A DNA stretch of 43,950 bases. It comes from a virus. Lineage: Duplodnaviria; Heunggongvirae; Uroviricota; Caudoviricetes. The stretch spans positions 1 through 43,950 of the IMG/VR virus record IMGVR_UViG_2778261535_000013, one strand, 5' to 3'. Below, piece by piece: positions 16,227-43,950 of this stretch. Below the pieces are notes generated by a model. It saw only the letters and a program-made list of their open reading frames with translations. It ran no database searches and was not told the DNA's origin. Position numbers and translations under genes: made by a program. Position 1 is the stretch's first letter. Every line of letters begins with the position of its first letter.

Positions 16227-16255
16227 AAAAAAAGACCTGGAGAAAATCCAGGCCT
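16227..16255 (-). terminator. intrinsic terminator after the replication/accessory operon
   Basis: minus-strand stem CCTGGA/TCCAGG with loop, followed by TTTTTTT. Confidence 0.5.
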
Positions 16256-16263
16256 TTATCGCT

Positions 16264-16512
16264 TTATTGTTTCACTGGATCCCGCATTCTGCGTCTTATT
16301 TTCCACAGATATTCGATCATCGCTTCCACCTGCTCACGATTGGTTGCGAAAATTTCCCCGGTCAGTGAGCTGCGCAGAAAATCATGATGATCCACAACAA
16401 ACAACGCATCGGAAGAAAGCAGACGGCGATATTTTTTTGCTGTCGTGGTTTCCAGATCATCAAAACCATGAAACTTTTTATGTTGCTGGACTTCTTCAAA
16501 TGTCACTGGCAT
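16264..16512 (-). CDS. hypothetical protein
   Basis: 82 aa ORF overlapping the ProQ/FinO-like gene stop; no motif. Confidence 0.35.
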   Translation of the reverse strand: MPVTFEEVQQHKKFHGFDDLETTTAKKYRRLLSSDALFVVDHHDFLRSSLTGEIFATNREQVEAMIEYLWKIRRRMRDPVKQ

Positions 16513-17045: not shown

Positions 17046-17081
17046 GCCTTCCCCTGTAATTACTCTGTTCGCTGTTGTGAA

Positions 17082-17507: not shown

Positions 17508-17571
17508 GCTGTCTGCTCTCCGGTTTTAACGTTGATGGTTACGCTTGTTTACACCCTTACGGTGAAATTCT

Positions 17572-17694
17572 GCGGGTTATAATCGCACTTTTGCGGGTTA
17601 TAACTGCCGTTTTGCGGGTTACGTGCGGGTTATTGATTTCCTTTTTATTCATACAGTTAATGCACTTATATACATGATAACCCGCATAACCCGC
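17572..17694. repeat. iteron cluster B: four GCGGGTTA(T/C) copies, an AT-rich spacer, and two inverted ATAACCCGC copies; candidate origin
   Basis: direct reading; lies immediately downstream of the replication gene. Confidence 0.6.
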
Positions 17695-17717
17695 AACTTT
17701 TCACCTCACACAGGGGG

Positions 17718-19841
17718 TTAATCTTCTGCCTCAGGCTGGAACATCAGCACGTAAAAAACATGCTGCTTCCCCCCAATTTTGCCGAGCGCCTTTTTCTTGT
17801 AACGGCGATCGTTACCCGCTTCCAGCATTCCGGCAGCACTCAACGCGCGGGCAAAGTGAGACGGATTAAATCCCTGTGCTATCTCACCCTCAAATACATG
17901 CGGGAACGTGTAAAAACGGAACTCGTCATCTTCGTTTCTGATACTCCCCTTTCTGTATCCGGCAAGTTCTTTAATCGGTAAATCACGCTCGTCGGTATTG
18001 GGCCACGGAAGGTATCTGCTGAATCCGAACGACGCTAAAAAAGCTTCTGCCTGTTCAACCATCTGTTTAAATTCCCTGTTACCCGTGCCGAACTCCTTCA
18101 CCCAGGCATTAAAATTATGCTGTATGGCATCGCGGCATTCCTGCTCATCCCAGCCAGTAACATGACCTGAAAGCACAAGCGCGGCCTCCAGTATGGCAAA
18201 TCGCTCCCCCACACGGTGAACCTGTTCGCCGTAGCTCTCCGGTATCAGGTTGCGCCACCGCTCACGGCATGTCCTTACCGTGTCCTTTGCCTCCTGCTGG
18301 TGTTCTGCCAGCCATTTAACCCACTCACGACCCGCCGCCCCGTGATTTTCTGTCCAGGCATCCTTTAACGCGTCTGCGTGCGCCTTTCCGGTGCTGTATT
18401 CGTGAAATTGCGTGGCTTTTTCCATCGGAACGTTAAGCAGGCGGACAAGCTGCCCCGCTTTGACTTTTATCCCCTCCGTTTTGAGGAATGTCTCAACGTC
18501 CATTTCTCCGGTGCTGATTGCCACCGTGCGCCAGTGTTTGATCTCCCTGTTGCCGCCGTCCTTCGCCCCCTGTAATTTCCCCGAACCGTTAAACAGCGTA
18601 TAGGCTGACGTGGACACCTCCCGCGCGTTTCCGGCCTGGCCTATTTCATCCAGGGGTAAAAGCCCGTCATTGTGTGCCTCTGCTTCGTTGGCGATACCTA
18701 ACGCTGTGCCGTACCAGGTCAGCCGCTGCGCGTCCGGCTCTCCCCATAAACTTGATGCGATGTTCTGTGTGGTGGTTTTCCCTGCCGATGACTGTTCGAA
18801 AAGATGTACCCCGAAGCCGTCAGCGCCCACCAGCCCGATTAATGGTGCGGATAACGATACCGCCACACCCAGCATCATGGACGGATTACCACCAGCCAGC
18901 CGCGCAACGGTATCGCGCCAGCCCTCCGCCGTTCCTGCCACGGAATAGCCATTAACAGCAGCCGTTTTTCCGGTAAACAGGACTGGCTTTTCGCAATCAC
19001 CAATGACCGAACCGTCCGGCATGATGTACGCGCCAAAATGCCAGCCCGTTGTTGTGCTTAACTGCCATTCCTCATGGCTTCCGCTTAACTGCATCCAGTC
19101 AGCCAGGATAGCCCTGTATTTACCGTTGGTTGTTACGTTCAGTCCGTGGTCTTTCAGCAACCGCCAGCCGTCACGGTCGCCAATGCCACCGCACGGAACC
19201 GCCATTGTGATGACTTCATGGTTTGCTAATTTTTTCCAGCGCATCACGCGGTAATGCTCTTTACCGATTGTCCCCGTTCCCAGTAGTTCAAGCGGGGAAC
19301 ATAACCACGTCTCAGGCCGGATAATTTCGCCTGACTGCTTATCCACTTTTGGCGTTACCCAGAAAACACCATCGGCGCGACTTTCAACGCGGGGCTTTAA
19401 TTCATCATCGCCCTGGATTTCTGTGATTTTTTTCTTTAAGGGCAACACCAGACTTTCCCCGCGCTCGTATTCGTCTTTGAGGCGAGGCAACTGGTCGGAT
19501 AAATCCGCCGGGCTGATGTCAGTTATCCCCGCGTATTCGTATACGGTCTTCACGCCAGCCACAGCCAGCAACGTGACGATCTGTGTAAGGCTACGTTCAG
19601 TGATGTGCCCTGCGCGGTAAACACGCACACACTGACGGCTATCATCAATAATTTGATAACCGGTAATATCTTTCAGGTGTTCATCTGACAGAACGACAGG
19701 CGGCACATTGTCGGCGGCAATATGCTTACCTGCCCATTCCTGCCACTCTTTCGCATGGCTCCACGCATCACTACCCGCAAAGATGATAACCTCCGTCATT
19801 TTGTCGGCTGGCTGGTGCTTTAAGTTTGGTGCGCGCTTCAT
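17718..19841 (-). CDS. replication protein, primase-helicase-like, with Walker A motif
   Basis: 707 aa; GxxxxGKT (…EQSSAGKTTT…); size and position beside the iterons match PICI/P4-type replication proteins. Confidence 0.65.
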   Translation of the reverse strand: MKRAPNLKHQPADKMTEVIIFAGSDAWSHAKEWQEWAGKHIAADNVPPVVLSDEHLKDITGYQIIDDSRQCVRVYRAGHITERSLTQIVTLLAVAGVKTVYEYAGITDISPADLSDQLPRLKDEYERGESLVLPLKKKITEIQGDDELKPRVESRADGVFWVTPKVDKQSGEIIRPETWLCSPLELLGTGTIGKEHYRVMRWKKLANHEVITMAVPCGGIGDRDGWRLLKDHGLNVTTNGKYRAILADWMQLSGSHEEWQLSTTTGWHFGAYIMPDGSVIGDCEKPVLFTGKTAAVNGYSVAGTAEGWRDTVARLAGGNPSMMLGVAVSLSAPLIGLVGADGFGVHLFEQSSAGKTTTQNIASSLWGEPDAQRLTWYGTALGIANEAEAHNDGLLPLDEIGQAGNAREVSTSAYTLFNGSGKLQGAKDGGNREIKHWRTVAISTGEMDVETFLKTEGIKVKAGQLVRLLNVPMEKATQFHEYSTGKAHADALKDAWTENHGAAGREWVKWLAEHQQEAKDTVRTCRERWRNLIPESYGEQVHRVGERFAILEAALVLSGHVTGWDEQECRDAIQHNFNAWVKEFGTGNREFKQMVEQAEAFLASFGFSRYLPWPNTDERDLPIKELAGYRKGSIRNEDDEFRFYTFPHVFEGEIAQGFNPSHFARALSAAGMLEAGNDRRYKKKALGKIGGKQHVFYVLMFQPEAED

Positions 19842-20152
19842 TTTGCCTTTCCCCGTTCACGAATAATTTCACGTACTGCCTTAATGCGTTCCATTCCTGT
19901 AACGCGCATGATTCTGTCGATGTCGCTTAATTCTGCTGGTGGTGCTTTACTTACCAAGGTGAACTCCCTGTCAAAGCGCATATGTGACGACACGCAGGGA
20001 TGCGCATAACCTTCGCGGATATAGGTCACACGAAAATCATCGACGGTTTTGATCGTTATCGTGCTGCCGTATTTATCCTGGAAAATATCGCCGGGGCGGA
20101 TTTCAGGCCGAGCGGGGCCGCTGGCAGTAAAGCCAGAATTTTTCTTTTTCAT
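19838..20152 (-). CDS. hypothetical protein
   Basis: 104 aa ORF, stop overlaps the replication gene start. Confidence 0.4.
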   Translation of the reverse strand: MKKKNSGFTASGPARPEIRPGDIFQDKYGSTITIKTVDDFRVTYIREGYAHPCVSSHMRFDREFTLVSKAPPAELSDIDRIMRVTGMERIKAVREIIRERGKAK

Positions 20153-20157
20153 GTTTT

Positions 20158-20406
20158 TTACTCCAGAGGCAGCTTTTTAGCGGCGAGCTCAATATCAGAT
20201 GTCAGAGAAACCTGTGTATTTGCCAGGTCTAACAACAAAGAAATAAGAATTTCTTCTCTGCTATCGGATTTATCGGTGCTAAGGCTGTTCATCCACATAT
20301 TGACGACTTCCCTGATTTTTTTCGCAGAGTGCAGGGCTTCAAATGCCAGGTCTTCAATATCATGTTTATTTCGCATAATCGCCCCCGCCATTTTCACAAT
20401 CAGCAA
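20158..20406 (-). CDS. hypothetical protein
   Basis: 82 aa ORF; true start uncertain. Confidence 0.35.
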   Translation of the reverse strand: MLIVKMAGAIMRNKHDIEDLAFEALHSAKKIREVVNMWMNSLSTDKSDSREEILISLLLDLANTQVSLTSDIELAAKKLPLE

Positions 20407-20611
20407 TCAGGATGGCTTTTGCCTCATTCAGCGCCGTATCAGCACTAAATTGCATGACAGCCAGTGAGTGAGGAACGAAAGCCCCGGCATATTCTGTTTC
20501 GCTGGTGGCGTGCTTATGCGCCTTGTCTGCGATAACAGAAATATCAATCAGCGCGTGCATCAGCGTTCTGATGGCTTCGGCGGCTGCGTCCGGACGGGTG
20601 TTATTACACAT
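20366..20611 (-). CDS. hypothetical protein
   Basis: 81 aa ORF; its ATG overlaps the stop of the upstream 67-aa ORF (ATGTGTAA) with AGGAGG RBS. Confidence 0.4.
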   Translation of the reverse strand: MCNNTRPDAAAEAIRTLMHALIDISVIADKAHKHATSETEYAGAFVPHSLAVMQFSADTALNEAKAILIADCENGGGDYAK

Positions 20612-20807
20612 GGCGTACCTCCTGACGAATACGGGCAGTAAATACCATCACGCAGCCGGCCGGGGATTGCTGGCGGGCTTCCTGTTCGCTGGTGGCCTCA
20701 ATGGTAATCACGCGCGGCTTAGCCGTGCTCAGGGCGATAAAACGCCAGATGTATTTATTCAGGTTGTGCGAGTCCCGCCCTTTCGGGTGTGTGGTATGAT
20801 TTAACAT
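20604..20807 (-). CDS. hypothetical small protein (67 aa), first gene of the leftward operon
   Basis: ATG at 20807 with RBS; corresponds to the C-terminal 67 codons of a long low-complexity ORF-track entry that is otherwise implausible. Confidence 0.4.
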   Translation of the reverse strand: MLNHTTHPKGRDSHNLNKYIWRFIALSTAKPRVITIEATSEQEARQQSPAGCVMVFTARIRQEVRHV

Positions 20808-20904
20808 AGCTACCTCGATACTTTCGCTATCGTTGGTGGTTAGAAGCCCCGTTACTGCTCCAACAGTGCGGGGTTTCGTCGTTTCTGCACCTTGCATAAA
20901 CAAG

Positions 20905-20985
20905 GTGTAAGACACAATGTAAAGCAGCAGTGTCTTACACGTCAATCCTTCAAAATAATTTTTTTTCGTGTATATTGTCTTACAC
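20905..20985. promoter_or_regulatory. divergent promoter region with three copies of operator GTGTAAGACAC / GTGTCTTACAC
   Basis: inverted pair at 20905-20915 and 20930-20940, third copy at 20976-20985 overlapping a TATATT -10-like hexamer about 30 nt upstream of the RHH gene. Confidence 0.5.
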
Positions 20986-21006
20986 CAAAAACATAAGGAG
21001 TTAGAC

Positions 21007-21186
21007 ATGGCAACAGGTCCAAAGAATGCAAAATCACAATCTGTAACTGCACGTATTGCCCATGAAATTATTGAAGGCATGGAAAAAGTGAAAGAAGAAG
21101 GCGAAAGTACAGGGCAGTTTATAAGCGCAGCCATGCGTGGCGAGATCAAACGCCGCCAGCGCCGCAAGGCCAAAGAGCAGGAGTAA
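21007..21186 (+). CDS. small ribbon-helix-helix-like regulator
   Basis: 59 aa from ATG 21007 (MATGPKNAKSQSVTARIAHEIIEGMEK…) with GGAG RBS; sequence pattern compatible with RHH/CopG-type DNA-binding proteins. Confidence 0.45.
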   Translation: MATGPKNAKSQSVTARIAHEIIEGMEKVKEEGESTGQFISAAMRGEIKRRQRRKAKEQE

Positions 21187-21243
21187 CCATCACCAGCGCC
21201 GTGGTGAGAGTAACTACGGCGCATTGCTATGCAGGTGCTTACC

Positions 21244-21423
21244 ATGAACGATAAAGAGTTAAAAAAAACACCACCACAAACACGGAAAGGACAGCGCAAA
21301 AAGATAGCGCATGAGCATGAATCAGAAAGATTCGCCCCCTGTGCGTTTGCTCTTGAGAAATTCCTTAAGGAGCACAAGAAAAAGCTATCATTGCAAACCT
21401 GGGAACGAACCGAATCTGACTGA
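21244..21423 (+). CDS. hypothetical small basic protein
   Basis: 59 aa from MNDKELKK… downstream of the RHH gene; no motif. Confidence 0.3.
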   Translation: MNDKELKKTPPQTRKGQRKKIAHEHESERFAPCAFALEKFLKEHKKKLSLQTWERTESD

Positions 21424-21516
21424 TCAAATTGCCCACCAGCCAGCAAATCGCTATGATGTTCGGGCTTATGTTTAGTGTTTTCCCATTGGCGACCGCCCCC
21501 GGTCGCCTTTGTTTTG

Positions 21517-22095
21517 TCACTGAATGCAGTTGTCAAAGTAAAACTCAGGCTGATATTCACGTATCAGCCTTTTTTCTTCTTCCTCCAGTTCACGCTTTTT
21601 GCGCTTACAGGCCTGTAGCTCCCTCCCCTTCTCACTGGCACTTATTTGATATTGCTCTTTACGGCGGGAAAAATCCTGCAATGCGCCCCACGGGATACCA
21701 TAAGCCCCTGTCTTTCTGATACCTGGTATCACATTCCTGAATACCCAGTTACTGAAACGATGAGCAAATGTGCCAGGCGTCGTTGCTTTGCGGCTGCGGG
21801 CTATTAGTTTGTAGAAACCTGACTCAGAGATAATGCTCATATTCTGATTTCCTCCGGGGGTGTAAGTTAAATTTACTCCCTTTTCATCATCATCAAGCAT
21901 CTGCAACGCCGTACGCGAATTGGTCAGTTCCAGCGCAGCGCAAACATCCTTTGCAACAAACCACGGATCGCCGTTCAGATACACCACGCGAACGTTCACA
22001 CCATCAAAGCGCAGAACGACCAGATCACGAATATCACAGAATTTTTTCACATGACGTGCGTCACCCTTGCCCGTCACGGCAATATTTTTATTCAT
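21517..22095 (-). CDS. Bro-N domain protein (antirepressor-like)
   Basis: …GDPWFVAKDVCAALELTNSRTALQMLDDDEK… matches the conserved Bro-N core. Confidence 0.7.
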   Translation of the reverse strand: MNKNIAVTGKGDARHVKKFCDIRDLVVLRFDGVNVRVVYLNGDPWFVAKDVCAALELTNSRTALQMLDDDEKGVNLTYTPGGNQNMSIISESGFYKLIARSRKATTPGTFAHRFSNWVFRNVIPGIRKTGAYGIPWGALQDFSRRKEQYQISASEKGRELQACKRKKRELEEEEKRLIREYQPEFYFDNCIQ

Positions 22096-22152
22096 CGCTT
22101 TCTACCTCACATACAAAAAACCCCGCATTGCGTGGTGCGGGGTTGTCGGTAA

Positions 22153-22431
22153 TTACTTATTGGCGTTTTTGTATGGGCTGTTTACTTCCTTTACTCCTGG
22201 CGGATGCATAACCCACCAGAGCACATCAGAGAGCAACCAGGAAACAGACACTTTCCCTAAATGAGCACGAGCAGGAAATGCTCCCTCCTGTTCAAGTACC
22301 CAACGTCTGCTTCTTGAAAGCCCGGTACGATTGGCACACTCATGTTCGCGTATACGGCGATCATACGGTTCGCCATGCTCTTTCAGAATCTGAATGCGTT
22401 CTTCGGGTGTAGGATAAATAAATTTTTGCAT
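22153..22431 (-). CDS. AlpA-family regulator (excisionase-like)
   Basis: likely start MQKFIYPTPEE… at 22431; …TGLSRSRRWVLEQEGAFPARAHLGKVSVSWLLSDV… matches the AlpA HTH pattern. Confidence 0.65.
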   Translation of the reverse strand: MQKFIYPTPEERIQILKEHGEPYDRRIREHECANRTGLSRSRRWVLEQEGAFPARAHLGKVSVSWLLSDVLWWVMHPPGVKEVNSPYKNANK

Positions 22432-22494
22432 AAAAATATCACCTATAAAAAAACCCGCCAAAAGACGGGTTGATTATATCTCATTTAATTTAGC

Positions 22495-22728
22495 TCAGGG
22501 TTTCCATTCACCCTTTACCCATTCCAGCACCTCAGATAAGCGCCAGACTTTTGTTTGTGGGCCAATACATATTTTTCGTGGAAATTTTCCTTCCTTTTCA
22601 AGTAACGATCTGTGTCTCCTGCCAAGAGCAGTTAACCATGCACATTCATCTTCCTTAATCATCCTGTCGATTGTTTTATCATTTTCAAGTTCTTCACGCG
22701 TAACTATTTGAATCATTACCATCACCAC
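22495..22728 (-). CDS. AlpA-family regulator (second copy)
   Basis: …LLEKEGKFPRKICIGPQTKVWRLSEVLEWV… matches the AlpA pattern; immediately downstream of the integrase gene. Confidence 0.6.
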   Translation of the reverse strand: MVMVMIQIVTREELENDKTIDRMIKEDECAWLTALGRRHRSLLEKEGKFPRKICIGPQTKVWRLSEVLEWVKGEWKP

Positions 22729-23917
22729 TAATTAGCTTATTCAGGTAGTCGTACCACCAGTTCATAGCTTCTTTTTTTCTGTCCATATACTGGCTTCTGT
22801 TATAAACCCCGGCAACACCGCCTAATGTGTGCCCAAGCAACTGTTCAACCACATTATGTTCAAAACCATGATCACTTAGCTTTGTGGCAAACACTCTTCG
22901 CATATCATGCGCCGTCCATTTCTCCGAGTGTTTCATCCTTTTCCATGTCTTACCGATAGTTACGCTTGCCGTACACTGACGCATATCAAACCCAATCACA
23001 TTTTCTTTGTTACCTGTTATTTTTTTTAACGTAACTAACCAGTTAAACATGCCATCAGGAATCGGTCTGATTATTTCCCTGCCATTTTTGCTATGATCAG
23101 CGGGAACGCGCCATAATTTCTTATCAAAATCCCACTCTCCCCAGGAGGACAGTAATACTTCTGACAGTCGGCAACCAAAAACTACCAGGAAACGTAAAAT
23201 AATTCGGTTTTCATATGATAATTCGTGATTGTCATAATCAGTATTAATACTTCGCCATAAATCTCTGATTTCATCATCTGTTAAAACCCTGCTTCTTCGC
23301 GCAGACTTTTTTCCCACATCACAGACCTCAAGATCATCAATTTCATGACTAATCGCGTATTTTCTTACCCGACAAAATTTAAGCGCCTGTTTTGATATAC
23401 GCAATAAAGCTCCGGCCTGTACAGGTGCTACTTTTTTTATTTTGTCAAAGCACTTGATCCACATAGATATTGAGCAATCACTAAGTGGTACATGACCAAT
23501 CACCGGATAAATATGTTTACCAAAGCACTGCCTGATATGTTCTGCTCCCCTACGCTTATCCATTGCATAATTATCAAGCCAGTATTCAAGCGCCTCACGA
23601 ACGGTAACAGGTTGCAAGGTGGCTTCCCGTTCAATTTTTATCTGAATCCGTGGATCTCTGCCCTCCGCAAGCCAGGTTCGACACTGATCGCGCATCTCTC
23701 TCGCTGATTTGAGACTCAGATCAGGATATTTTCCAAGTGTCAGCCAGATGGGCGCGGTTCCCCTTCCCGCCAGTCTGTAAAAGAAAACAAAACTAACACA
23801 TCCGTATTTACTGACCCGTACCGAAAGCCCGTTACCATCAGCGATGGTTTCCTGCCTCTCACTCCTGCGCCCAAGCAGGGAACGAAGTTTTTTATCGCTC
23901 AGTTTGTTTAGCGCCAT
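22694..23917 (-). CDS. int: tyrosine integrase, P4-type
   Basis: likely start MALNKLSDKKLRSLLG… at 23917; C-terminal catalytic region …HDMRRVFATKL…LLGHT…YNRSQY; adjacent to the right junction. Confidence 0.9.
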   Translation of the reverse strand: MALNKLSDKKLRSLLGRRSERQETIADGNGLSVRVSKYGCVSFVFFYRLAGRGTAPIWLTLGKYPDLSLKSAREMRDQCRTWLAEGRDPRIQIKIEREATLQPVTVREALEYWLDNYAMDKRRGAEHIRQCFGKHIYPVIGHVPLSDCSISMWIKCFDKIKKVAPVQAGALLRISKQALKFCRVRKYAISHEIDDLEVCDVGKKSARRSRVLTDDEIRDLWRSINTDYDNHELSYENRIILRFLVVFGCRLSEVLLSSWGEWDFDKKLWRVPADHSKNGREIIRPIPDGMFNWLVTLKKITGNKENVIGFDMRQCTASVTIGKTWKRMKHSEKWTAHDMRRVFATKLSDHGFEHNVVEQLLGHTLGGVAGVYNRSQYMDRKKEAMNWWYDYLNKLISGDGNDSNSYA

Positions 23918-23937
23918 GTGATTTATAACCCGTTTTT

Positions 23938-23958
23938 GCAATACACAGTGCAATACAC
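23938..23958. repeat. GCAATACACAGTGCAATACAC, candidate integrase arm-type site (right arm)
   Basis: matches 9526-9546 with one mismatch; 20-40 nt upstream of the int start codon. Confidence 0.4.
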
Positions 23959-24088
23959 AAATGATGAAAACAGCCAGAACCTTCCAGAAAAAACAAAAAC
24001 GACGAACAAGAAAAAATCTTTTTCTTTCATTTGGTTACTAAAAAAATCAGGACAGGCCGCACTGTTGTTACGGCGTGATGTTACGTTC

Positions 24089-28407: not shown

Positions 28408-28490
28408 TGGACCGTCACCGGGGACTCGAACCCCGCACCACAAAACAACAATACGTGTTATGCACTCTTACCCGATGAGTTAGTGACGGT
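28408..28490 (-). tRNA. tRNA-like gene with non-canonical anticodon arm (possible GUA anticodon), may be a pseudo-tRNA
   Basis: perfect acceptor stem CCGTCAC/GTGACGG, T-arm CGGGG-TTCGAGT-CCCCG and CCA end, but the anticodon arm only folds as ATAAC-ACGTATT-GTTGT with C at position 33. Confidence 0.45.
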
Positions 28491-29135: not shown

Positions 29136-29210
<75 letters not shown>

Positions 29211-29213
29211 ATA

Positions 29214-29289
<76 letters not shown>

Positions 29290-29291
29290 AC

Positions 29292-29369
29292 TGGACCGCC
29301 ACCGGGGACTCGAACCTCGCACACTCAACTTAAAGGGTTGACGCTCTTTCCTGATGAGCTAGTGGCGGT
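29292..29369 (-). tRNA. tRNA-like gene, possible UUU (Lys) anticodon with C at position 33
   Basis: folds as CCGCCAC-TA-GCTC…GAGC-G-TCAAC-CCTTTAA-GTTGA-GTGTG-CGAGG-TTCGAGT-CCCCG-GTGGCGG-T-CCA with one T-stem mismatch; abuts the next tRNA with no spacer. Confidence 0.5.
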
Positions 29370-29445
29370 TGGTGGCCCTTGCTGGATTTGAACCAGCGAC
29401 CTGGCGATTATGAGTCGCTCGCTCTCACCACTGAGCTAAAGGGCC
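29370..29445 (-). tRNA. tRNA with CAU anticodon (Ile2/lysidine type or elongator Met)
   Basis: 76 nt GGCCCTTTAGCTCAGTGGTGAGAGCGAGCGACTCATAATCGC…GGGCCACCA; resembles E. coli ileX-type tRNA as recalled. Confidence 0.85.
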
Positions 29446-32206: not shown

Positions 32207-32362
32207 TTACTCCTCAGGTTCGTAAGCTGTGAAGACAGCGACCTCCGTCTGGCCGGTTCGGATTCGTACCTCGCAGAGGTCTTTCCTCGTTACCAGTGCC
32301 GTCACTATGACGGTTAAACAGATGACGATCAGGGCGATTAACATCGCCTTTTGCTGCTTCAT
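32207..32362 (-). CDS. hokD: Hok/Gef-family type I toxin
   Basis: 51 aa MKQQKAMLIALIVICLTVIVTALVTRKDLCEVRIRTGQTEVAVFTAYEPEE; matches the Hok/RelF family, essentially identical to hokD as recalled; the ORF track extends 19 codons upstream in frame. Confidence 0.75.
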   Translation of the reverse strand: MKQQKAMLIALIVICLTVIVTALVTRKDLCEVRIRTGQTEVAVFTAYEPEE

Positions 32363-32573
32363 AGCCTGCTTCTCCTTGCCTTTCGGCACGTAAGAGGCTA
32401 ACCTAGATTTGCCGTTCATAGATTGAGCCTCAGATTAATGTTAAGCGTTTTGCAGGACGCGTAATGTTAACTGGGGCTTTTCTCTATCTGCCTTTGGTGT
32501 TCATGCCTGAGACAGATAGCCTCAAGCACCCGCAGCCATTCTACTTAACTCCCGTCACCTGGCCAATATAAAA

Positions 32574-35809: not shown

Positions 35810-36235
35810 TCAATGTACTGCCACAGCATTTCCTGCCGGGCCACCACGGTTCATCTGATTGAAACCGGCGATTGCCACTGCGACAAAATCATCAGCGTCT
35901 CTCACCAGTCGCTCCCGCGTCTCCACCAGCTCCCGAAAATAAGCTGAACTGTGGCTGCGCATTCTGGCCACCAGCAAAGGTGGCATTGCCTTTTCGATCG
36001 CTGGTAACAACGCCTGAATTTTTTCAACTGCATCAGGGGTGTCTTTCTCTACCCAGCGGAAAATTTTCTGGGTATTGCGAGCCAGGGCTTCCGGATGGCT
36101 GTCGTCATACAGTTCTGGGAACGTCATACCCAGTTCAAAATAAGCCCTGGTTATTTCAGCTGCCGGAACTTTTTCACCGTCCGGATGCGCCCAGGCATTC
36201 ATCGCCATGCGGATGTGTTCATGCTTGATTTTCAT
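35810..36235 (-). CDS. YdaT-like protein (CII-like position)
   Basis: 141 aa beginning MKIKHEH…; follows the Cro-like gene as ydaT follows ydaS in Rac-type prophages (from memory). Confidence 0.5.
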   Translation of the reverse strand: MKIKHEHIRMAMNAWAHPDGEKVPAAEITRAYFELGMTFPELYDDSHPEALARNTQKIFRWVEKDTPDAVEKIQALLPAIEKAMPPLLVARMRSHSSAYFRELVETRERLVRDADDFVAVAIAGFNQMNRGGPAGNAVAVH

Positions 36236-36500
36236 GAATCAAGCTCCTAGAAAGTGGTTGTGTTAACGTTTTGGTATCTTCCAGCTCGGGCCAAATATTC
36301 ATCCAATCAAAAGGCCTTAGTTGCTGACGTGTAACTTCACCATTACTGGCTCGCTCAATAAGGACACATAACGATGCCCCTAACACTTGACCTTTACTCA
36401 ATGCCTTTCTTAGATAACCGATGCTGGTACCACACTCGCATGCAAACATACGCTGTTCATCTGACGAAAGAGAATTGAGAAATATTCTTAATTCTTCCAT
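36219..36500 (-). CDS. Cro/YdaS-like HTH regulator
   Basis: 93 aa; …CECGTSIGYLRKALSKGQ… HTH-like; divergent from the repressor gene. Confidence 0.55.
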   Translation of the reverse strand: MEELRIFLNSLSSDEQRMFACECGTSIGYLRKALSKGQVLGASLCVLIERASNGEVTRQQLRPFDWMNIWPELEDTKTLTQPLSRSLIHENQA

Positions 36501-36600
36501 AGCTACTCCTTAGTAAACACAGTAAAGAATACCCACAGGTAAACAAAAGTCAATACCCACAGGTTGTTTACCTTGCGGTAATCGCATCTATTATTTACCT
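36501..36600. promoter_or_regulatory. divergent promoter/operator region between Cro-like and repressor genes
   Basis: two direct copies of AATACCCACAGG (36528-36539, 36552-36563) with flanking inverted GGTAAACAA / TTGTTTACC. Confidence 0.5.
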
Positions 36601-37020
36601 ATGGACAAATATGAATTTAGACGACAGCAACTCATCAAAATTCGTGATGAGAAATGCGATGGTAAAGCGGTTAACGTGGCCAGAAAGATCGGGCGCGAGC
36701 CTTCTTATGTATCAAGAATGTTGTACCCAGAGGGGAAAAAGGGAAAAAAACGGATCGCTGATGATATGGTGGAGATTATCGAAGAGTCCTTTGGGTTACC
36801 CCGGGGATGGATGGATGGTATCGTTTCATCATCAACGAACACAGCCTCCAGTTATGAAACAAGGGTTCTAACGCCACGACAACGTATTTTTTTAGATCTC
36901 TTAGACGAACTGCCAGAAAGTGAAGCGGATAACTTATTAAAAACTCTTGAAGAGAAAAAACAGTATTACAATATGATCTACGAAGAAATCCGTAAAAAGA
37001 AAGCACAAAACGCATCATAG
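36601..37020 (+). CDS. prophage repressor (DicA/RacR-like HTH protein, no peptidase domain)
   Basis: 139 aa; HTH …VARKIGREPSYVSRM…; C-terminal …LTPRQRIFLDLLDELPESEAD… resembles DicA-type repressors (from memory). Confidence 0.55.
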   Translation: MDKYEFRRQQLIKIRDEKCDGKAVNVARKIGREPSYVSRMLYPEGKKGKKRIADDMVEIIEESFGLPRGWMDGIVSSSTNTASSYETRVLTPRQRIFLDLLDELPESEADNLLKTLEEKKQYYNMIYEEIRKKKAQNAS

Positions 37021-37062: not shown

Positions 37063-37099
37063 TACCCATGGGTATTTACTTTTTAAATACCTATGGGTA
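37063..37099. promoter_or_regulatory. second operator-like cluster downstream of the repressor gene (palindromes TACCCATGGGTA and TACCTATGGGTA)
   Basis: direct reading; shares the TACCCA half-site with the 36528-36563 repeats. Confidence 0.35.
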
Positions 37100-37285
37100 T
37101 CCTTCTTTTCATACCAACCCACCCCGCCCCACAGAATGCAGGGCAATACTTCGAGTTACCAGGCAGTGGTCAGGGGTTAAGTAGCCAGCCCGAGGCGTAA
37201 GAACATGACGGCAGGGTTCAACTTTAATAACTATGCAGCAGGTTTTTGTTCCGCTACCCCGGCGTTAAGGGGAAATGAGGTCAAC

Positions 37286-37441
37286 ATGGATACTATCGAT
37301 CTTGGCAACAACGAATCTCTGGTGTACGGCGTGTTTCCCAACCAGGACGGCACATTCACCGCGATGACGTATACCAAAAGCAAAACGTTTAAAACCGAAA
37401 ATGGTGCCCGTCGCTGGCTGGAAAGAAACTCAGGTGAGTGA
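37286..37441 (+). CDS. YdfA-like small protein
   Basis: 51 aa from MDTIDLGNNESLVYGVFPNQDG…; first gene of the rightward early operon. Confidence 0.45.
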   Translation: MDTIDLGNNESLVYGVFPNQDGTFTAMTYTKSKTFKTENGARRWLERNSGE

Positions 37442-37572
37442 TATGGATTTCGACACAATCATGGAAAAGGCTTACGAAGAATACTTCGAAGGTCTTGCCG
37501 AAGGCGAAGAAGCTCTCAGCTTCAACGAATTTAAACAGGCGCTTTCCAGTTCGGCAAAATCTAACGGCTGAT
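37441..37572 (+). CDS. YdfB-like small acidic protein (43 aa)
   Basis: ATG overlapping the previous stop (TGATATGG); MDFDTIMEKAYEEYFEGLAEGEEALSFNEFKQALSSSAKSNG. Confidence 0.35.
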
Positions 37573-37600
37573 AAGCGAAGCAGCACCGCGAGGAATCAGT

Positions 37601-37819
37601 ATGCAGAAACGAGAACCCGTCATCATCGCGCCAGACTATACCGATGATGAACTTTATGAGTGGATGCGCCAGAAAATTAATGCAGCGCAGGATCTGAAAT
37701 GGGCCAATGAAGCCAGGGCTAAGCAGGCTGAAAATCTGTCCGCTCTGGAGCAGGATATCACCAATCTGGAAAAAGCAGCGGCATTAAGCATTGCCAGAAT
37801 GATTACATACCCACGTTAA
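37601..37819 (+). CDS. YdfC-like protein
   Basis: 72 aa ORF with coiled-coil-like sequence. Confidence 0.45.
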   Translation: MQKREPVIIAPDYTDDELYEWMRQKINAAQDLKWANEARAKQAENLSALEQDITNLEKAAALSIARMITYPR

Positions 37820-37841
37820 TAGCTAACCAACGAGGCTAATA

Positions 37842-38249
37842 ATGGAATTTAAAGATTTACCAAAAGAAATCCAGACAATTGCTGCAACGACTCTCGGTGA
37901 TAGTCTGGTGAAAATTGACCCGGCATACACCAAAAAAGAAACCATCGATAATATGGTTCGTAATGTGCGCAATGCTTTTTCTGGGCTATATGGTTCTGAT
38001 AATCAAAAGCAGGAAAGCGATGTTAATGAACGGGTAATTTCTGTTTGCGTGAATGGCCATGTTCTTTCATCAATCAAAACAGAAACAGCGACAGTCTTCG
38101 ATTGCCTTTGCATTGTACAGAGCCTTGTTGATGCCCTGTTTCGTTCAGTGAATTTAGAAAATGATGCAAATCTGCGAGGGCGCACAATAGCACATCCATA
38201 TGCACATACTTTAGGCTCTGTGGATATCAAAGATCCCACAAATCTTTAA
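37842..38249 (+). CDS. hypothetical protein in AT-rich block
   Basis: 135 aa ORF with AGGCTAATAATGG start context; AT-rich relative to flanks. Confidence 0.4.
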   Translation: MEFKDLPKEIQTIAATTLGDSLVKIDPAYTKKETIDNMVRNVRNAFSGLYGSDNQKQESDVNERVISVCVNGHVLSSIKTETATVFDCLCIVQSLVDALFRSVNLENDANLRGRTIAHPYAHTLGSVDIKDPTNL

Positions 38250-38460
38250 TGAAATAGTTAACGCGAATTGTACTTGCTCTTTCAGTTGCTTTCAGAATAC
38301 GCGTTGAAACTGCTGGCGGTAATTTGGTATTCCATTTATTAAAATCATGCCCGGGGAAGTACTCTTCGAAAATACTTTTAACTGCAGACTCGCCTATTGA
38401 AATGCTGCTTACCATGCGATTTTGATAAAGGCATTTAGCAATAAGAGTTGATTTTAACAT
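38227..38460 (-). CDS. hypothetical protein in AT-rich block, convergent with previous gene
   Basis: 77 aa ORF; its 3' end overlaps the 3' end of the plus-strand 135-aa ORF. Confidence 0.35.
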   Translation of the reverse strand: MLKSTLIAKCLYQNRMVSSISIGESAVKSIFEEYFPGHDFNKWNTKLPPAVSTRILKATERASTIRVNYFIKDLWDL

Positions 38461-38793
38461 TCACCCTCCTGAGGGTTGGTAATTAAGGAGTTCTCCACGG
38501 GTGAGGTGGAGTGCGTGCGCCGGACACGGGTGAGCATCCGGCACTGACAGTTTACTGAAAGGATATTTCCATGAAAAGTCAGACCATAACGCGAAAGCGC
38601 ACGGCGAGGTAGCTGGTTCATAGATAGCCTGTCGTTAAATTTTCGTCGACCGTGCGCTTCCGGTTGTGGCACTCCGCGAAATGGCGCGGCGGTAAGTATG
38701 GCGGGGTTATTCCTTCCCCGTTGAGGACACCGGGTTGTCAGGTTGACCATACGCTTAAGTGACAACCCCGCTGCAACGCCCTCTGTTATCAAT

Positions 38794-38846
38794 TTTCTGG
38801 TGACGTTTGGCGGTATCAGTTTTACTCCGTGACTGCTCTGCCGCCC
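38794..38846 (+). ncRNA. dicF: DicF small RNA
   Basis: TTTCTGGTGACGTTTGGCGGTATCAGTTTTACTCCGTGACTGCTCTGCCGCCC followed by TTTTT matches the DicF sRNA sequence as recalled; lies immediately upstream of dicB as in Qin. Confidence 0.7.
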
Positions 38847-39020
38847 TTTTTAAAGTGAATTTTGTGATGCGGTGAATGCGGCTAAGCGCACGCGGAACAG
38901 TTAAAACCAAAAACAGTGTTATGGGTGGATTCTCTGTATCCGGCGTTAATTGTTAACTGGTTAACGTCACCTGGAGGCACCAGGCACCGCATCACAAAAT
39001 TCATTGTTGAGGACGCGATA

Positions 39021-39209
39021 ATGGAAACGTTATTACCAAACGTTAATACGTCTGAAGGTTGTTTTGAAATTGGTGTCACTATCAGTAACCCTGTATTTAC
39101 TGAAGATGCCATTAACAAGAGAAAACACGAACGGGAGTTATTAAATAAAATATGCATTCTTTCAATGCTGGCCCGTTTACGTCCGATACAAAAAGGATGC
39201 TGGCAATGA
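39021..39209 (+). CDS. dicB: cell division inhibitor DicB
   Basis: 62 aa METLLPNVNTSEGCFEIGVTISNPVFTEDAINKRK…KICILSMLARLR… matches DicB. Confidence 0.85.
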   Translation: METLLPNVNTSEGCFEIGVTISNPVFTEDAINKRKHERELLNKICILSMLARLRPIQKGCWQ

Positions 39210-39397
39210 ATACAGCATTTGCACTTGTTCTGACAGTTTTTCTTGTTTCCGGAGAGCCAGTTGATATTGCAGTCAGTGTTCACAGAACAATGCAGGAATG
39301 TATGGCAGCAGCAACCGAACAGAAAATTCCCGGTAACTGTTACCCGGTCGATAAAGTTATTCACCAGGATAGTAACGAAATCCCGGCAGGTCTTTAA
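39206..39397 (+). CDS. ydfD: YdfD-like protein
   Basis: 63 aa MNTAFALVLTVFLVSGEPVDIAVSVHRTMQECMAAATEQKIPGNCYPVDKVIHQD…; start overlaps the dicB stop. Confidence 0.75.
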   Translation: MNTAFALVLTVFLVSGEPVDIAVSVHRTMQECMAAATEQKIPGNCYPVDKVIHQDSNEIPAGL

Positions 39398-39489
39398 AAC
39401 AGTTCCGTAATAAACATCCGATTTCATTCTTATATGCCAGCAATGGCAGGGATTTGTTCACCATTAAATCTGTAATGAGGTAAAACAAA

Positions 39490-41961
39490 ATGAGTAAAGT
39501 CTTTATTTGCGCCGCCATTCCGGACGAACAGGCAATAAAGGAAGAAGGTGCAGTCGCTGTAGCTACTGCCATTGAAGCCGGTGATGAACGTCGCGCCCGC
39601 GCAAAATTTCACTGGCAATTCCTGGAACATTATCCGGCTGCTCAGGACTGCGCTTATAAATTTCTTGTCTGCGAGGATAAACCCGGTATACCCCGCCCTG
39701 CCCTCGATTCCTGGGATGCTGAATATATGCAGGAAAACCGCTGGGATGAGGAGTCTGCTTCCTTTGTCCCGGTTGAGACTGAATCAGATCCGATGAACGT
39801 CACTTTTGACAAGCTGGCCCCTGAAGTACAGAACGCTGTCATGGTTAAGTTCGACACATGTGAAAACATCACTGTTGATATGGTGATTAGCGCACAGGAA
39901 TTGTTGCAGGAAGACATGGCAACATTCGACGGCCATATCGTTGAAGCGTTGATGAAAATGCCAGAAGTAAACGCCATGTATCCGGAGCTTAAGCTGCATG
40001 CCATCGGGTGGGTTAAGCATAAATGTAAGCCTGGTGCCAAATGGCCCGAAATTCAGGCAGAGATGTGCATCTGGAAAAAACGTCGCGAAGGTGAACGCAA
40101 GGAAACCGGAAAATACACGTCTGTTGTTGATCTCGCCCGCGCCAGACCCAATCAACAGAACACTGAAAATTCAACAGGAAAAATCAACCCGGTCATTGCT
40201 GCCACTCATCGCGAATACAAGCAGACATGGAAAACACTGGATGACGAACTGGCCTACGCTCTCTGGCCTGGTGATGTGGATGCCGGAAACATTGACGGCA
40301 GCATCCATCGCTGGGCAAAAAATGAAGTTATCGACAACGACCGCGAAGACTGGAAGCGTATCTCGGCATCAATGCGCAAACAGCCTGATGCCCTTCGCTA
40401 CGACCGCCAGACTATTTTTGGCCTTGTCCGTGAACGTCCGATCGACATTCACAAAGACCCTGTGGCACTGAACAAATACATTACTGAATACCTGACTACA
40501 AAGGGCGTGTTTGAAGATGAAGGAAGAAATCAGAGCGCAACTGATACTCTCTCGTCGCCAGTACCAGAAACTGATGCAGTGGAAACGGCAATTCCGGACA
40601 ACGAAAAAACCGAATGCAAAGTGGAAGTCGAACCATCTGTAGAGCGTGAGGGGCCGTTCTACTTCCTCTTCACCGACAAGAATGGCGAAAAATACGGTCG
40701 CGCAAACAAACTTTCTGGTCTGGATAAGGCGCTGGCTGCCGGGGCTACTGAAATCACGAAAGAAGAATATTTCGCCCGCAAAAACGGTACATACTCAGGT
40801 TCACAACAAAATACTGGTGCATCTGACACGACCGCACAACCAGAGCCGGTAAAAGTTACCGCTGACGAAGTAAACAAAATTATGCAGGCAGCCAATATCA
40901 GCCAGCCTGACGCCGATGAACTGCTTGCAGTATCACGTGGTGAATTTGTTGCAGGGATTAGCGATCCGAATGATCCGAAATGGGTGAAGGGGATTGAAAC
41001 CCGCGATTCTGTGAACCAGAACCAGCAAGAAACGGAACAGAACGACCAGAAAGCGGAACAAAACAGCCCAAATGCGTTACAAAACGAGCCAGAAACGAAA
41101 CAATCCGAACCAGTAGCGCAACAGGAACCGGAAAAAGTCTGCACCGCCTGCGGTCAGAGCGGTGGCGGCAACTGCCCTGATTGTGGCGCGGTGATGGGCG
41201 ACGCAACATACCAGGAAACATTCGATGAAGAGAATCAGGTTGAAGTTCAGGAAAATGATCCGGAGGAAATGGAAGGCGCTGAACATCCACACAAGGAGAA
41301 CCCTGGCGGCAATCAGCATCACGCCAGCGATAATAAAACTGGCGAGGCGACAGATCCCTTAATTAAGGTGAATGGTCATTATAAGCTCACATCCACCAGC
41401 AGAGCGGGGATTCATCTGATGATCGACCTTGAAACAATGGGAAAAAATCCCGATGCCCCGATTATCTCAATAGGCGCAATATTTTTCGATCCACAAACCG
41501 GAGAGATGGGGCCGGAATTTAGCAAGACCATCGATCTGGATACTGCTGGCGGAGTCATTGATCGTGACGTCATTAAATGGTGGCTGAAGCAATCACGTGA
41601 AGCGCAGTCTGCCATTATGACCGATGAAATCCCGTTAGATGATGCACTACTGCAATTGCGGGAATTTATCGACGAAAACTCCGGTGAATTTTTTGTTCAG
41701 GTCTGGGGTAATGGGGCCAACTTCGACAACGTGATTTTACGCCGTTCATACGAACGACAGGGTATCCCCTGCCCGTGGCGCTACTGCAACGATCGCGATG
41801 TACGCACAATCGTTGAGCTGGGGAAAGCCATAGACTTCGATGCCAGAACTGCTATCCCATTCGAAGGTGAGCGCCATAATGCACTTGATGACGCTCGTTA
41901 CCAGGCAAAATACGTTTCAGCTATCTGGCAAAAACTGATCCCGAGTCAGGCTGATTTTTAA
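39490..41961 (+). CDS. large prophage protein with C-terminal DnaQ-like (DEDDh) 3'-5' exonuclease domain
   Basis: 823 aa; exo motifs …MIDLETMG…, …WGNGANFDNVIL…, …HNALDDARYQ…; central CxxC…CPDC zinc-ribbon-like motif; acidic Gln-rich linker. Confidence 0.6.
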   Translation: MSKVFICAAIPDEQAIKEEGAVAVATAIEAGDERRARAKFHWQFLEHYPAAQDCAYKFLVCEDKPGIPRPALDSWDAEYMQENRWDEESASFVPVETESDPMNVTFDKLAPEVQNAVMVKFDTCENITVDMVISAQELLQEDMATFDGHIVEALMKMPEVNAMYPELKLHAIGWVKHKCKPGAKWPEIQAEMCIWKKRREGERKETGKYTSVVDLARARPNQQNTENSTGKINPVIAATHREYKQTWKTLDDELAYALWPGDVDAGNIDGSIHRWAKNEVIDNDREDWKRISASMRKQPDALRYDRQTIFGLVRERPIDIHKDPVALNKYITEYLTTKGVFEDEGRNQSATDTLSSPVPETDAVETAIPDNEKTECKVEVEPSVEREGPFYFLFTDKNGEKYGRANKLSGLDKALAAGATEITKEEYFARKNGTYSGSQQNTGASDTTAQPEPVKVTADEVNKIMQAANISQPDADELLAVSRGEFVAGISDPNDPKWVKGIETRDSVNQNQQETEQNDQKAEQNSPNALQNEPETKQSEPVAQQEPEKVCTACGQSGGGNCPDCGAVMGDATYQETFDEENQVEVQENDPEEMEGAEHPHKENPGGNQHHASDNKTGEATDPLIKVNGHYKLTSTSRAGIHLMIDLETMGKNPDAPIISIGAIFFDPQTGEMGPEFSKTIDLDTAGGVIDRDVIKWWLKQSREAQSAIMTDEIPLDDALLQLREFIDENSGEFFVQVWGNGANFDNVILRRSYERQGIPCPWRYCNDRDVRTIVELGKAIDFDARTAIPFEGERHNALDDARYQAKYVSAIWQKLIPSQADF

Positions 41962-42013
41962 TGTTCAACTGTCGCCAGTTGTCGTTGGTATTCTGCAACT
42001 GGCGCGTTCCGGA

Positions 42014-42292
42014 GTGATAGCCATGAGCGAACAGTACCTGATAACGCTCGATGAGTGGAAGCCAAAACGGTTCAGTCTCCCAATAACAAACACTACCCTG
42101 GTGAAATACGGAAAACTAGGATACATCGTTCCAAGACCACAAAAAATTCGTGGGCGTTGGCTGATAGATCGCCGGGCAGTATTTGTTGGACCTGGTGAAA
42201 TGGGAATTGCGCCGGAAATTCATACTGGCGATGATGATGCACTGAAGGAGATTTTAACTCATGTCACCGAGGCCACGAAAAAACAGCACTGA
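42014..42292 (+). CDS. xis: excisionase-like protein
   Basis: 92 aa ORF immediately upstream of and overlapping the integrase gene. Confidence 0.5.
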   Translation: MIAMSEQYLITLDEWKPKRFSLPITNTTLVKYGKLGYIVPRPQKIRGRWLIDRRAVFVGPGEMGIAPEIHTGDDDALKEILTHVTEATKKQH

Positions 42293-43379
42293 CGTAACCG
42301 GTCTTTACGAAAAGTTTGATCGCAGAACTGGCAGGGTTTACTACCAGTATAAAAATCCTGTGACTGGAAAATTTCACGGACTCGGAACAGACAAAGGTAA
42401 GGCAGAAAAAATCGCTTCCACAGCCAATCAGCGAATAGCTGCAGCAGAAGCTGAATATTTCATGCGCAAAATTGATGAAAGTCCGTCAGCAACAAAACGT
42501 CGGGGTATCAGATTAAAGGCATGGGTTGATCGATATCTGAAAATACAGGACGCGCGACTGAAAAATGGAGATATTGCAGCTACAACTCACAAAGAAAAAG
42601 CCCGAATGGCTGCATACCTGGTTTCCCGTCTGGGAAACCACCCATTGAAAGAACTGGAAGTAAGAGACTTTGCATTAATACTGGATGAGTGGCTGGATAA
42701 AGACATGGTCAGCACAGCGAGAGTAAATCGTGGATTATGGGTTGATATTTATAAAGAAGCACAGCATGCAGGGGAAGTTCCTCCTGGATGGAATCCTCCG
42801 GAGGCTACCCGTAAACCGATCCCTAAAGTAACCAGAGCCAGACTCACCCTGGAGGACTGGCAAAAAATTTACAATTCAACACCAGAAAAACACTTTATCC
42901 GTAACGCAATGCTTCTTGCGATTGTTACTGGTCAGCGCCGTGATGACATTTGCCACATGCGTTTTTCAGATGTGTGGAACGAACACTTGCATATCACCCA
43001 GGGAAAAACCGGAATGCGTCTGGCGTTACCGCTTACGCTACGCTGTGATGCCATTGGAATATCGCTAAAAGAAGTGATTGATGGATGCAAGGACAGAATA
43101 TTGAGTCCATACCTGATTCATAGTCGGCACCAGAAACAACCAAAACCAATGAGTAAAGATAACCTGAGCGACTACTTTGCTAAAGCGCGGGATCTGGCAG
43201 GAATAACTCCACCAGCAGGAAAAACACCACCAACATTTCATGAACAACGCTCCCTGTCAGAACGACTGTACCGCGCACAGGGTATCGATACAAAAACATT
43301 ACTGGGACATAAAGTCCAAGCAACCACCGATCGTTATAACGATACTCGTGGTCAGGAATGGGTTAAATTGGTTGTTTGA
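42261..43379 (+). CDS. int: tyrosine integrase, lambda Int family
   Basis: 372 aa; C-terminus …HEQRSLSERLYRAQGIDTKTLLGHKVQATTDRYNDTRGQEWVKL parallels the lambda Int C-terminus. Confidence 0.9.
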   Translation: MSPRPRKNSTDVTGLYEKFDRRTGRVYYQYKNPVTGKFHGLGTDKGKAEKIASTANQRIAAAEAEYFMRKIDESPSATKRRGIRLKAWVDRYLKIQDARLKNGDIAATTHKEKARMAAYLVSRLGNHPLKELEVRDFALILDEWLDKDMVSTARVNRGLWVDIYKEAQHAGEVPPGWNPPEATRKPIPKVTRARLTLEDWQKIYNSTPEKHFIRNAMLLAIVTGQRRDDICHMRFSDVWNEHLHITQGKTGMRLALPLTLRCDAIGISLKEVIDGCKDRILSPYLIHSRHQKQPKPMSKDNLSDYFAKARDLAGITPPAGKTPPTFHEQRSLSERLYRAQGIDTKTLLGHKVQATTDRYNDTRGQEWVKLVV

Positions 43380-43451
43380 CGAAATAAATACAGCTGTAAC
43401 GTTGCCAGTAATTAACAACCGATAAAAATGTTGATATTGCTTTACTGATGT

Positions 43452-43479
43452 AAAAACCCCGGCATCAGCCGGGGTTTGG
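43452..43479. terminator. bidirectional intrinsic terminator between int and the convergent gene
   Basis: stem CCCCGGC/GCCGGGG with loop ATCA, flanked by A-run and T-run. Confidence 0.5.
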
Positions 43480-43482
43480 AGA

Positions 43483-43950
43483 CTAATCTTGATCAGGTTC
43501 CTGCTTAGAATAATGTTTTCCAACAATAAATGCCGTAACCAATGCAACAAGATCTATTGAAACGAGAGCTCCAGCAAGAACAGTCTCCCCCATGACACCA
43601 AAGACAGCAGCAACGAAGATAATCAATATCGCCAGCCAAAAAGCCTTTGTTTGACCATCTCTGGCAATATCAATGGTATCAGCCACCGTTTTGTGGCGAT
43701 GAGCCTGCTCCTTTTCAGTCAACTCAACAAGCCTATTTGCAAGCCCTGGCATCAGTTGATCATACTTTTTAAGCATTGATGGCGGAGGAACCGGCCCCTG
43801 AAAATGCTGGCAAACAATAGCTCGTACCTGCGGGCTCTCCAAAACCCTGTTTAAGACTTCTGGATTTTCGATTACTCGAGAAACCAGTTCATTGTCCTTT
43901 TGTTCTTCACAAGTGAGTTTGGTGTTCTCACTTTCTTTTTGATCTGGCAT
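43483..43950 (-). CDS. hypothetical membrane protein (start codon at window end)
   Basis: 155 aa ORF with ATG at 43950-43948 and a hydrophobic C-terminal half; convergent with int. Confidence 0.4.
   Translation of the reverse strand: MPDQKESENTKLTCEEQKDNELVSRVIENPEVLNRVLESPQVRAIVCQHFQGPVPPPSMLKKYDQLMPGLANRLVELTEKEQAHRHKTVADTIDIARDGQTKAFWLAILIIFVAAVFGVMGETVLAGALVSIDLVALVTAFIVGKHYSKQEPDQD

Follow-up and report, generated by a model that had tools for sequence, protein, structure and literature searches.

A conserved multi-helix RNA element upstream of DicF in the dicBF division-inhibition module of a lambdoid prophage

The window analyzed here, the whole 43,950-nt stretch of IMG/VR virus record IMGVR_UViG_2778261535_000013, is a lambdoid prophage, and within its early-left operon lies a division-inhibition cassette in the order ydfA-ydfB-ydfC-(insert)-leader-DicF-dicB-ydfD-exonuclease-xis-int (Table 1). 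The first-pass annotation, made from the letters alone, had recognized a 53-nt DicF small RNA followed by a T-run, a 62-aa dicB, and a ydfD-like open reading frame (ORF) whose start overlaps the dicB stop, and each of these was borne out. The 53-mer is identical to the K-12 dicF gene b1574 at 53/53 positions, and the covariance model of Rfam family RF00039 matches positions 38795-38846 of the plus strand with 76.7 bits (gathering score 48 and E-value 2.5e-15), spanning model positions 1-52 of 52 with no mismatched pairs. The Rfam scan found this one copy only in the whole window. The terminator hairpin of the RNA (-15.9 kcal/mol) is directly followed by the T-run (TTTTT); Rfam score, sequence identity to K-12, and terminator hairpin plus U-run all place it in the DicF family. 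In NZ_CP122712.1, the closest record, the RefSeq annotation names dicB and the DUF1482 gene and has no ncRNA feature for DicF despite the K-12-identical sequence. Since RefSeq omits the RNA there, flagging DicF is useful for annotation. When the DicF core pattern was searched in one genome per species, only seven loci were found, all of them in Escherichia, Shigella, or probably contaminated metagenome bins.

The two proteins encoded next to DicF score above the curated cut-offs of their families. DicB matches both Pfam PF05358 with 127.4 bits (cut-off 27) and NCBIfam NF049927 (CellDivInhibDicB) with 132.7 bits (cut-off 100), over residues 1-62 of 62, and it is identical to K-12 DicB at 55/62 residues. 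Because seven residues differ, four of which are within the last eight, a potency equal to that of K-12 DicB can only be assumed. YdfD matches Pfam PF07358 (DUF1482) with 88.1 bits (cut-off 25) and shares 58/63 residues with the K-12 protein, which is labelled "lysis protein" in RefSeq. While the longest-ORF listing gives ydfD a length of 81 aa, RefSeq starts the gene at an internal ATG (39206), which is also the K-12 start, and this start overlaps the dicB stop in the tetranucleotide ATGA (39206-39209). The DicF-dicB-ydfD cassette is already known and very common, to the point of being textbook material (Faubladier 1990; Balasubramanian 2016, PMC5069750; Ragunathan 2019, 2023, PMC6832061, PMC10448788), and nothing argues against its identification. 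We have hardly any doubt that positions 38794-39397 correspond to the canonical dicBF division-inhibition module in the early-left (PL-type) operon of a lambdoid prophage.

Table 1. Features of the prophage early-left operon and its surroundings, with positions in the window
Feature	Position	Strand	Description or basis
cII-like gene	35810-36235	-	Divergent, upstream of repressor
Cro-like gene	36219-36500	-	Divergent, upstream of repressor
Prophage repressor (cI analogue, not DicA)	36601-37020	+	PHROG 5736 "transcriptional regulator", 235 bits
Putative left operators	TACCCATGGGTA 37063-37074; TACCTATGGGTA 37088-37099	+	Palindrome count
Putative PL-like promoter	37063-37103 region	+	-35 TTTACT, 17-nt spacer, -10 TATCCT; read by eye
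ydfA	37286-37441	+	Protein identical to K-12; Pfam DUF1391
ydfB	37443-37571	+	One residue different from K-12
ydfC	37601-37819	+	Protein identical to K-12
Insert, 654 bp	37820-38473		Between ydfC and leader; alignment gap versus K-12 Qin and phage Tritos
Insert ORF, 135 aa	37842-38249	+	PHROG 1363; hypothetical protein in RefSeq
Insert ORF, 77 aa	38227-38460	-	PHROG 10348; hypothetical protein in RefSeq; convergent, overlaps 135-aa ORF
Untranslated structured leader	38474-38793	+	Homologous to K-12 ydfC-dicF region
Long hairpin	38584-38669	+	-37.4 kcal/mol, z-score -3.4
Conserved multi-helix RNA element, ~115 nt	38663-38777	+	RNAalifold consensus, 35 variants
Element helix P0	38663-38670/38770-38777	+	Closing helix
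Element helix H0	38674-38678/38685-38689	+	Internal stem
Element helix P2	38690-38693/38729-38732	+	Encloses HA
Element helix HA	38703-38706/38716-38719	+	Inside P2
Element helix HB	38734-38743/38753-38766	+	Long stem
Candidate pseudoknot	38696-38701/38747-38752	+	GUAUGG with CCAUAC in HB loop; added by hand to the RNAalifold fold
DicF, 53 nt	38794-38846	+	Rfam RF00039; identical to K-12 b1574; single-stranded 5' part, then terminator hairpin
U-run of intrinsic terminator	38847-38851	+	From sequence; role in setting the 53-nt DicF 3' end from literature
Structured DicF-dicB spacer	38844-39053	+	Folding z-score -5.3
dicB, 62-aa cell-division inhibitor	39021-39209	+	Pfam PF05358; NCBIfam NF049927; K-12 identity
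ydfD, 63-aa DUF1482 lysis protein	39206-39397	+	Pfam PF07358; K-12 identity
Exonuclease, 823 aa	39490-41961	+	RefSeq annotation; Pfam Rv2179c-like domain
Excisionase	42023-42292	+	RefSeq annotation of strain 99.6% identical over 37111-43950
Integrase	42261-43379	+	RefSeq annotation of strain 99.6% identical over 37111-43950

The cassette had also been described as Qin-like. This is true of the ydfA-to-ydfD part of the operon, whose gene order, spacing, and ATGA overlap are those of K-12, but not for the prophage, in which neither the repressor nor the operators nor the promoter region is of the Qin (DicA/DicC) immunity type. The promoter-proximal genes of the dicBF operon, ydfA, ydfB, and ydfC, show 97-99% nucleotide identity to K-12; this homology begins ~45 nt ahead of ydfA, and the promoter region is nonhomologous. 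Against the DicA model, the repressor reaches 23.9 bits (cut-off 101), in a match confined to its C-terminal third. Four copies of the palindrome TACC-N4-GGTA are present in the window, versus 0.22 expected, a count reached by 0/100 shuffles. All four copies adjoin the repressor gene, with none elsewhere in the window: two lie between the cro-like and repressor genes (36530-36580), and two just past the repressor. Judging from the sequence, these palindromes are likely to be right and left operators, in an immunity system of another type than DicA. The left pair flanks and overlaps the putative PL-like promoter, at whose hexamers a consensus promoter scan made no call. Because of this arrangement, we expect an operon that stays silent in the lysogen and is switched on at repressor loss, which has a parallel in the control of dicBp by DicA in K-12.

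Neither ORF of the insert that separates ydfC from the leader has a match in Pfam, NCBIfam, or PADLOC (defence systems), and PADLOC also returned nothing for the small proteins. The insert ORFs lengthen the transcript, and the antisense 77-aa ORF could affect read-through. O157:H7 PPompW prophages have at least the last 34 bp of the insert (38440-38473) in common with the window. In the 823-aa protein downstream of the cassette, for which the annotation is "exonuclease" or "exodeoxyribonuclease VIII", Pfam recognizes an Rv2179c-like 3'-5' exonuclease domain at the C-terminal end (residues 642-813, 223 bits) and no family in the first 640 residues. Elsewhere in the window, Rfam detects a sok antitoxin RNA at 32357-32531 on the minus strand (110.1 bits; gathering score 59), which points to a type I toxin-antitoxin locus of the hok/sok kind in the prophage. 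Also on the minus strand, at 29136-29445 and 28408-28489, is a cluster of four prophage tRNA genes (Gly-UCC, Thr-UGU, Lys-UUU, and Met-CAU), located upstream of where the window aligns to the antiterminator Q gene of ETEC1749. An 82-nt tRNA-Val(AAC), called by ARAGORN alone and absent from the Rfam result, is doubtful.

How widespread is the cassette? A 981-bp query (38440-39420) is present in 4,748/5,426 complete E. coli genomes, with a median of two and a maximum of 10 cassette copies per carrying genome, and it matches 60 phage records, inducible phages such as Tritos included. Most copies are 95-99% identical. The match is 100% identical in porcine ETEC1749 and rl0044 and 98.6% identical in many O157:H7 strains; in O157:H7 PPompW phages, identity is 96.8% over the initial 693 bases of the query, a segment that begins within the insert (38440-38473). 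Compared to ETEC1749 (NZ_CP122712.1), the window is a mosaic that is collinear only over 37111-43950 (99.6%). The immunity region has relBE in NZ_CP122712.1 and the cI-like repressor in the window, and window positions 9458-24088 have no counterpart in the 43,950-bp stretch compared from that record. The value for annotation is small, with the cassette present in most E. coli genomes and both dicB and the DUF1482 gene already named by RefSeq.

The leader upstream of DicF had been noted as a GC-rich, structured stretch at 38460-38790. It is indeed GC-rich, folded, and noncoding, but it starts at 38474, positions 38460-38473 being part of the insert. GC content across 38500-38800 is 0.52-0.57, versus ~0.36-0.43 in the flanks, and the folding z-score of the whole leader is -2.5. 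The leader is identical to the K-12 ydfC-dicF untranslated region at 313/320 positions (97.8%), and is thus more conserved at the nucleotide level than ydfD (95.3%) or dicB (93.1%). A reading in which this GC-rich stretch encodes a 112-aa protein on the minus strand (38454-38792) starts from a 112-codon open frame with a TTG start, at which some phage records have an annotated hypothetical protein. However, this ORF has no match in Pfam, PHROG, or NCBIfam, is unannotated in RefSeq, K-12, and phage Tritos, and runs antisense to a transcribed operon. Moreover, the frame is shortened to 56-107 codons in 56/81 distinct homologous leaders and is full-length in 25/81. We rejected it as a gene and regard a protein encoded there as extremely improbable, in agreement with the first-pass annotation, which had found this ORF implausible. 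Since the frame is without a family match and broken in most homologs, we consider the leader to be noncoding.

Two long duplexes in this untranslated RNA can be related to the known processing of DicF. In K-12, the 5' end of a 190-nt DicF precursor is RNase III dependent, and the transcript that stops at DicF is a major species (PMC10448788). The long hairpin at 38584-38669 is likely to be the RNase III substrate giving the 5' end of this precursor. Since both 190-nt and 53-nt species have been reported (PMC10448788), the 5' end would be expected at ~38657-38662, in the 3' arm of the hairpin. The second duplex lies in the DicF-dicB spacer, which contains a long-range stem of 19 bp between 38856-38874 and 38985-39003. 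The two arms form an inverted repeat that is 100% complementary, the stem ends 5 nt ahead of the dicB Shine-Dalgarno sequence, and its differences from K-12 and Tritos are G-C versus G-U, which keeps the pairing. The 72-nt form of DicF is an RNase III product of read-through transcripts (PMC5069750), and the 19-bp stem is likely to be the RNase III site for it, with a 3' end expected near 38865, in the 5' arm.

A 13-codon ORF on the plus strand (38572-38613, MKSQTITRKRTAR) extends into the 5' arm of the leader hairpin. Its ATG, 7 nt past AAGGA (a good Shine-Dalgarno sequence), arises by one C-to-A substitution, the triplet being CTG in both K-12 and Tritos. We did not retain this ORF as a gene since its ATG is not conserved, and it is probably incidental.

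The only new point is the multi-helix element at 38663-38777, the fold of which appears to be undescribed. When 37100-39500 was scanned permissively against Rfam (E up to 5), the hits were DicF, a subthreshold STnc100 match, and noise, with no family for the leader. In the literature on "dicF-like", on DicF together with P1 ban, and on the structure of the 190-nt precursor, we found no description of a leader fold, although Faubladier & Bouche 1994 (PMC205167), on dicF-related prophage sequences, may already have described the homology. Two pattern scans of IMG/VR gave at least 120 contigs each, and 35 variants were aligned after duplicate removal; the patterns fix part of the element and diversity is low, with an effective sequence number of 1.56. 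In this alignment, 96.5% of cells are paired, and nine pairs change on both sides, a number reached by 0/500 shuffles. In slid controls, where partners were moved by 1-3 columns, 31-55% of cells are paired, with at most four double-changed pairs. Helix HA changes in its whole sequence and length among variants and is still a stem, while the most conserved bases of the element are in loops and junctions. The positions of the candidate pseudoknot read GCAUGG/CCAUGC in P1, with U-G or G-U intermediates in other variants; its support is one covarying pair. The 5' strand of P0 has an alternative pairing inside the RNase III hairpin. The covariance model of the element finds one copy in the window, with 159.7 bits (next best 10.2 bits), and its scores in P1 and phage pPE4 are 92 and 93 bits, respectively.

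Might the leader be a mere spacer, conserved through the recent spread of the cassette, the structure of which is a by-product of its GC content? With most copies 95-99% identical, conservation alone says little, and the single-sequence folding z-score of the element alone is only -1.0. The low effective number of sequences, in homologs whose retrieval patterns prescribe part of the element, points in the same direction. Yet the diverged copies in P1 (78-82% identity) and pPE4 retain the helices via compensatory changes, P0 not being evident in P1, and HA has been rewritten and remains a stem. The count of double-changed pairs also argues against a mere spacer, as does a leader that is closer to K-12 than either dicB or ydfD. 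We consider this explanation unlikely.

In sensitive blastn searches of phage records, the leader proved to be modular, with ~38663-38785 recurring separately. The element is found 1) in the PL operon of the cdtI, Ayreon, and Stx2c phages, where it follows cI and is 89% identical, 2) at 78-82% identity in P1 and P7, ~40 nt after C1-controlled Pban promoters, where the P1 copy overlaps the "dicF-like region" of the record, and 3) ahead of kil and an exonuclease VIII gene in a phage whose deposited name is Actinobacillus phage pPE4. The element is always just upstream of a small-RNA/terminator slot with varying sequence. In other phages, the cdtI type and P1 among them, the DicF slot is occupied by at least seven other terminator-hairpin RNAs with differing 5' single-stranded parts. 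Around the swapped slot, the upstream element is kept and the downstream spacer (TTTTTAAAGTGAATTTTGTGATG...) is mostly kept. This suggests that the small RNAs in the exchangeable slot form a prophage family whose members differ by swapped targeting regions.

The constant position of the element ahead of an intrinsic terminator, with the terminator varying and the element kept, would also fit a cis-acting control of elongation. As a put-like antiterminator or a riboswitch-like attenuator, the element would set read-through of the DicF terminator into the genes from dicB to int. The location in the PL operon of lambdoid phages is in line with this, and so are the concentration of the highest conservation in loops and junctions and the arrangement in P1, where the element soon after Pban is followed by a terminator to be passed for ban. 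However, the covariance model has no match at HK022 putL/putR, and the PR side lacks a further copy, the next best score in the window being that of 10.2 bits. One phage has the leader part ahead of the element (38474-38668) in an operon encoding an N antiterminator, the DicF-terminated transcript is a major species in K-12, and by eye no complementary strand was seen for an alternative antiterminator pairing. On balance, we judge elongation control to be improbable.

We favor a role in the processing of the transcript, for which a mechanism can be proposed if, because of the sequence identity, the processing and functions established in K-12 are assumed for this copy. Transcription would start from a promoter near 37075-37103, under two palindromic operators of the resident repressor, and the operon would be off in the lysogen and on when the prophage's own repressor is lost. 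In K-12 Qin, an RNase III cut in the long leader hairpin of the polycistronic RNA generates the 190-nt precursor (PMC10448788), and an RNase E cut generates the DicF 5' end (PMC10448788, PMC5069750). The 3' end is made in two ways: transcripts that terminate intrinsically at the U-run yield the 53-nt form, and RNase III cleavage of read-through transcripts in the 19-bp stem yields the 72-nt form (PMC5069750). According to the K-12 literature, DicF together with Hfq pairs with ftsZ and other mRNAs and blocks their translation, DicB indirectly blocks FtsZ-ring assembly and also inhibits inner-membrane phage receptor proteins, and YdfD leads to lysis when produced. In the prophage, the GC-rich leader would supply both the RNase III substrate and a compact domain, the latter being the 5' body of the 190-nt precursor.

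We see an even chance that the element is a processing/stability scaffold that sets the RNase III and RNase E cut sites and keeps a long untranslated stretch structured. Alternatively, it may act through some other function of the 190-nt RNA. More tentatively, and with odds that we place below even, it may be more than a passive RNase substrate, namely an undescribed functional structured RNA motif of lambdoid and P1-like phages. Such a motif could, for example, set read-through into the division-inhibitor/recombination genes or act as the functional 5' domain of the 190-nt RNA. If functional, the element would explain why the 190-nt precursor exists, and why P1 and Qin-like lambdoid phages attach different small RNAs to a common upstream module. 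As for the cassette itself, derepression of the prophage should lead to filamentation and DicF-dependent changes in host expression, with the switch predicted to be under a non-DicA repressor.

Several known systems can be compared to this locus. The DicF-dicB spacer aligns full-length to Rfam STnc100 (RF02076), the long closing helix included, and was rejected as a member of that family at 39.1 bits, below the gathering score of 47. The HK022 put RNA resembles the element in being a compact multi-stem structure that precedes terminators and belongs to the leader of an early operon under repressor control. In contrast, put is ~70 nt with two stems (PMC9378689) and comes as an L/R pair, whereas the element, a single copy, spans ~115 nt and has four or five helices. 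HK022 putL/putR share with the leader only the 9-mer GCGCGGCGG. The element was rejected as a put-family member on account of the covariance model missing putL/putR and of the lack of a second window copy, which leaves room for a functional analogy with the put antiterminator. The "dicF-like region" of P1/P7 shares the element (78-82%, 92 bits) and then a terminator hairpin. Unlike the prophage, P1 is without the DicF sequence, dicB, the RNase III hairpin, and an evident P0, and its element leads to tRNA genes, tciABC, and ban.

The closest parallels are found in E. coli and its phages. Escherichia phage Tritos has a cassette with DicF annotated and a gene order identical to that reported here, but lacks the 654-bp insert. 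The dicBF operon of K-12 Qin (ydfABC-dicF-dicB-ydfD) has the same genes, in the same order and with the same spacing, and the nucleotide identity is 53/53 for DicF, 97.8% for the leader, 98.3% for the DicF-dicB spacer, 93.1% for dicB, and 95.3% for ydfD. The two prophages differ in that 1) Qin has DicA/DicC immunity, whereas the one described here has another repressor and other operators, 2) the two-ORF insert of 654 bp is present here and not in Qin, and 3) downstream, Qin has ydfE and intQ pseudogenes and an IS2, whereas here the exonuclease, xis, and int are intact.
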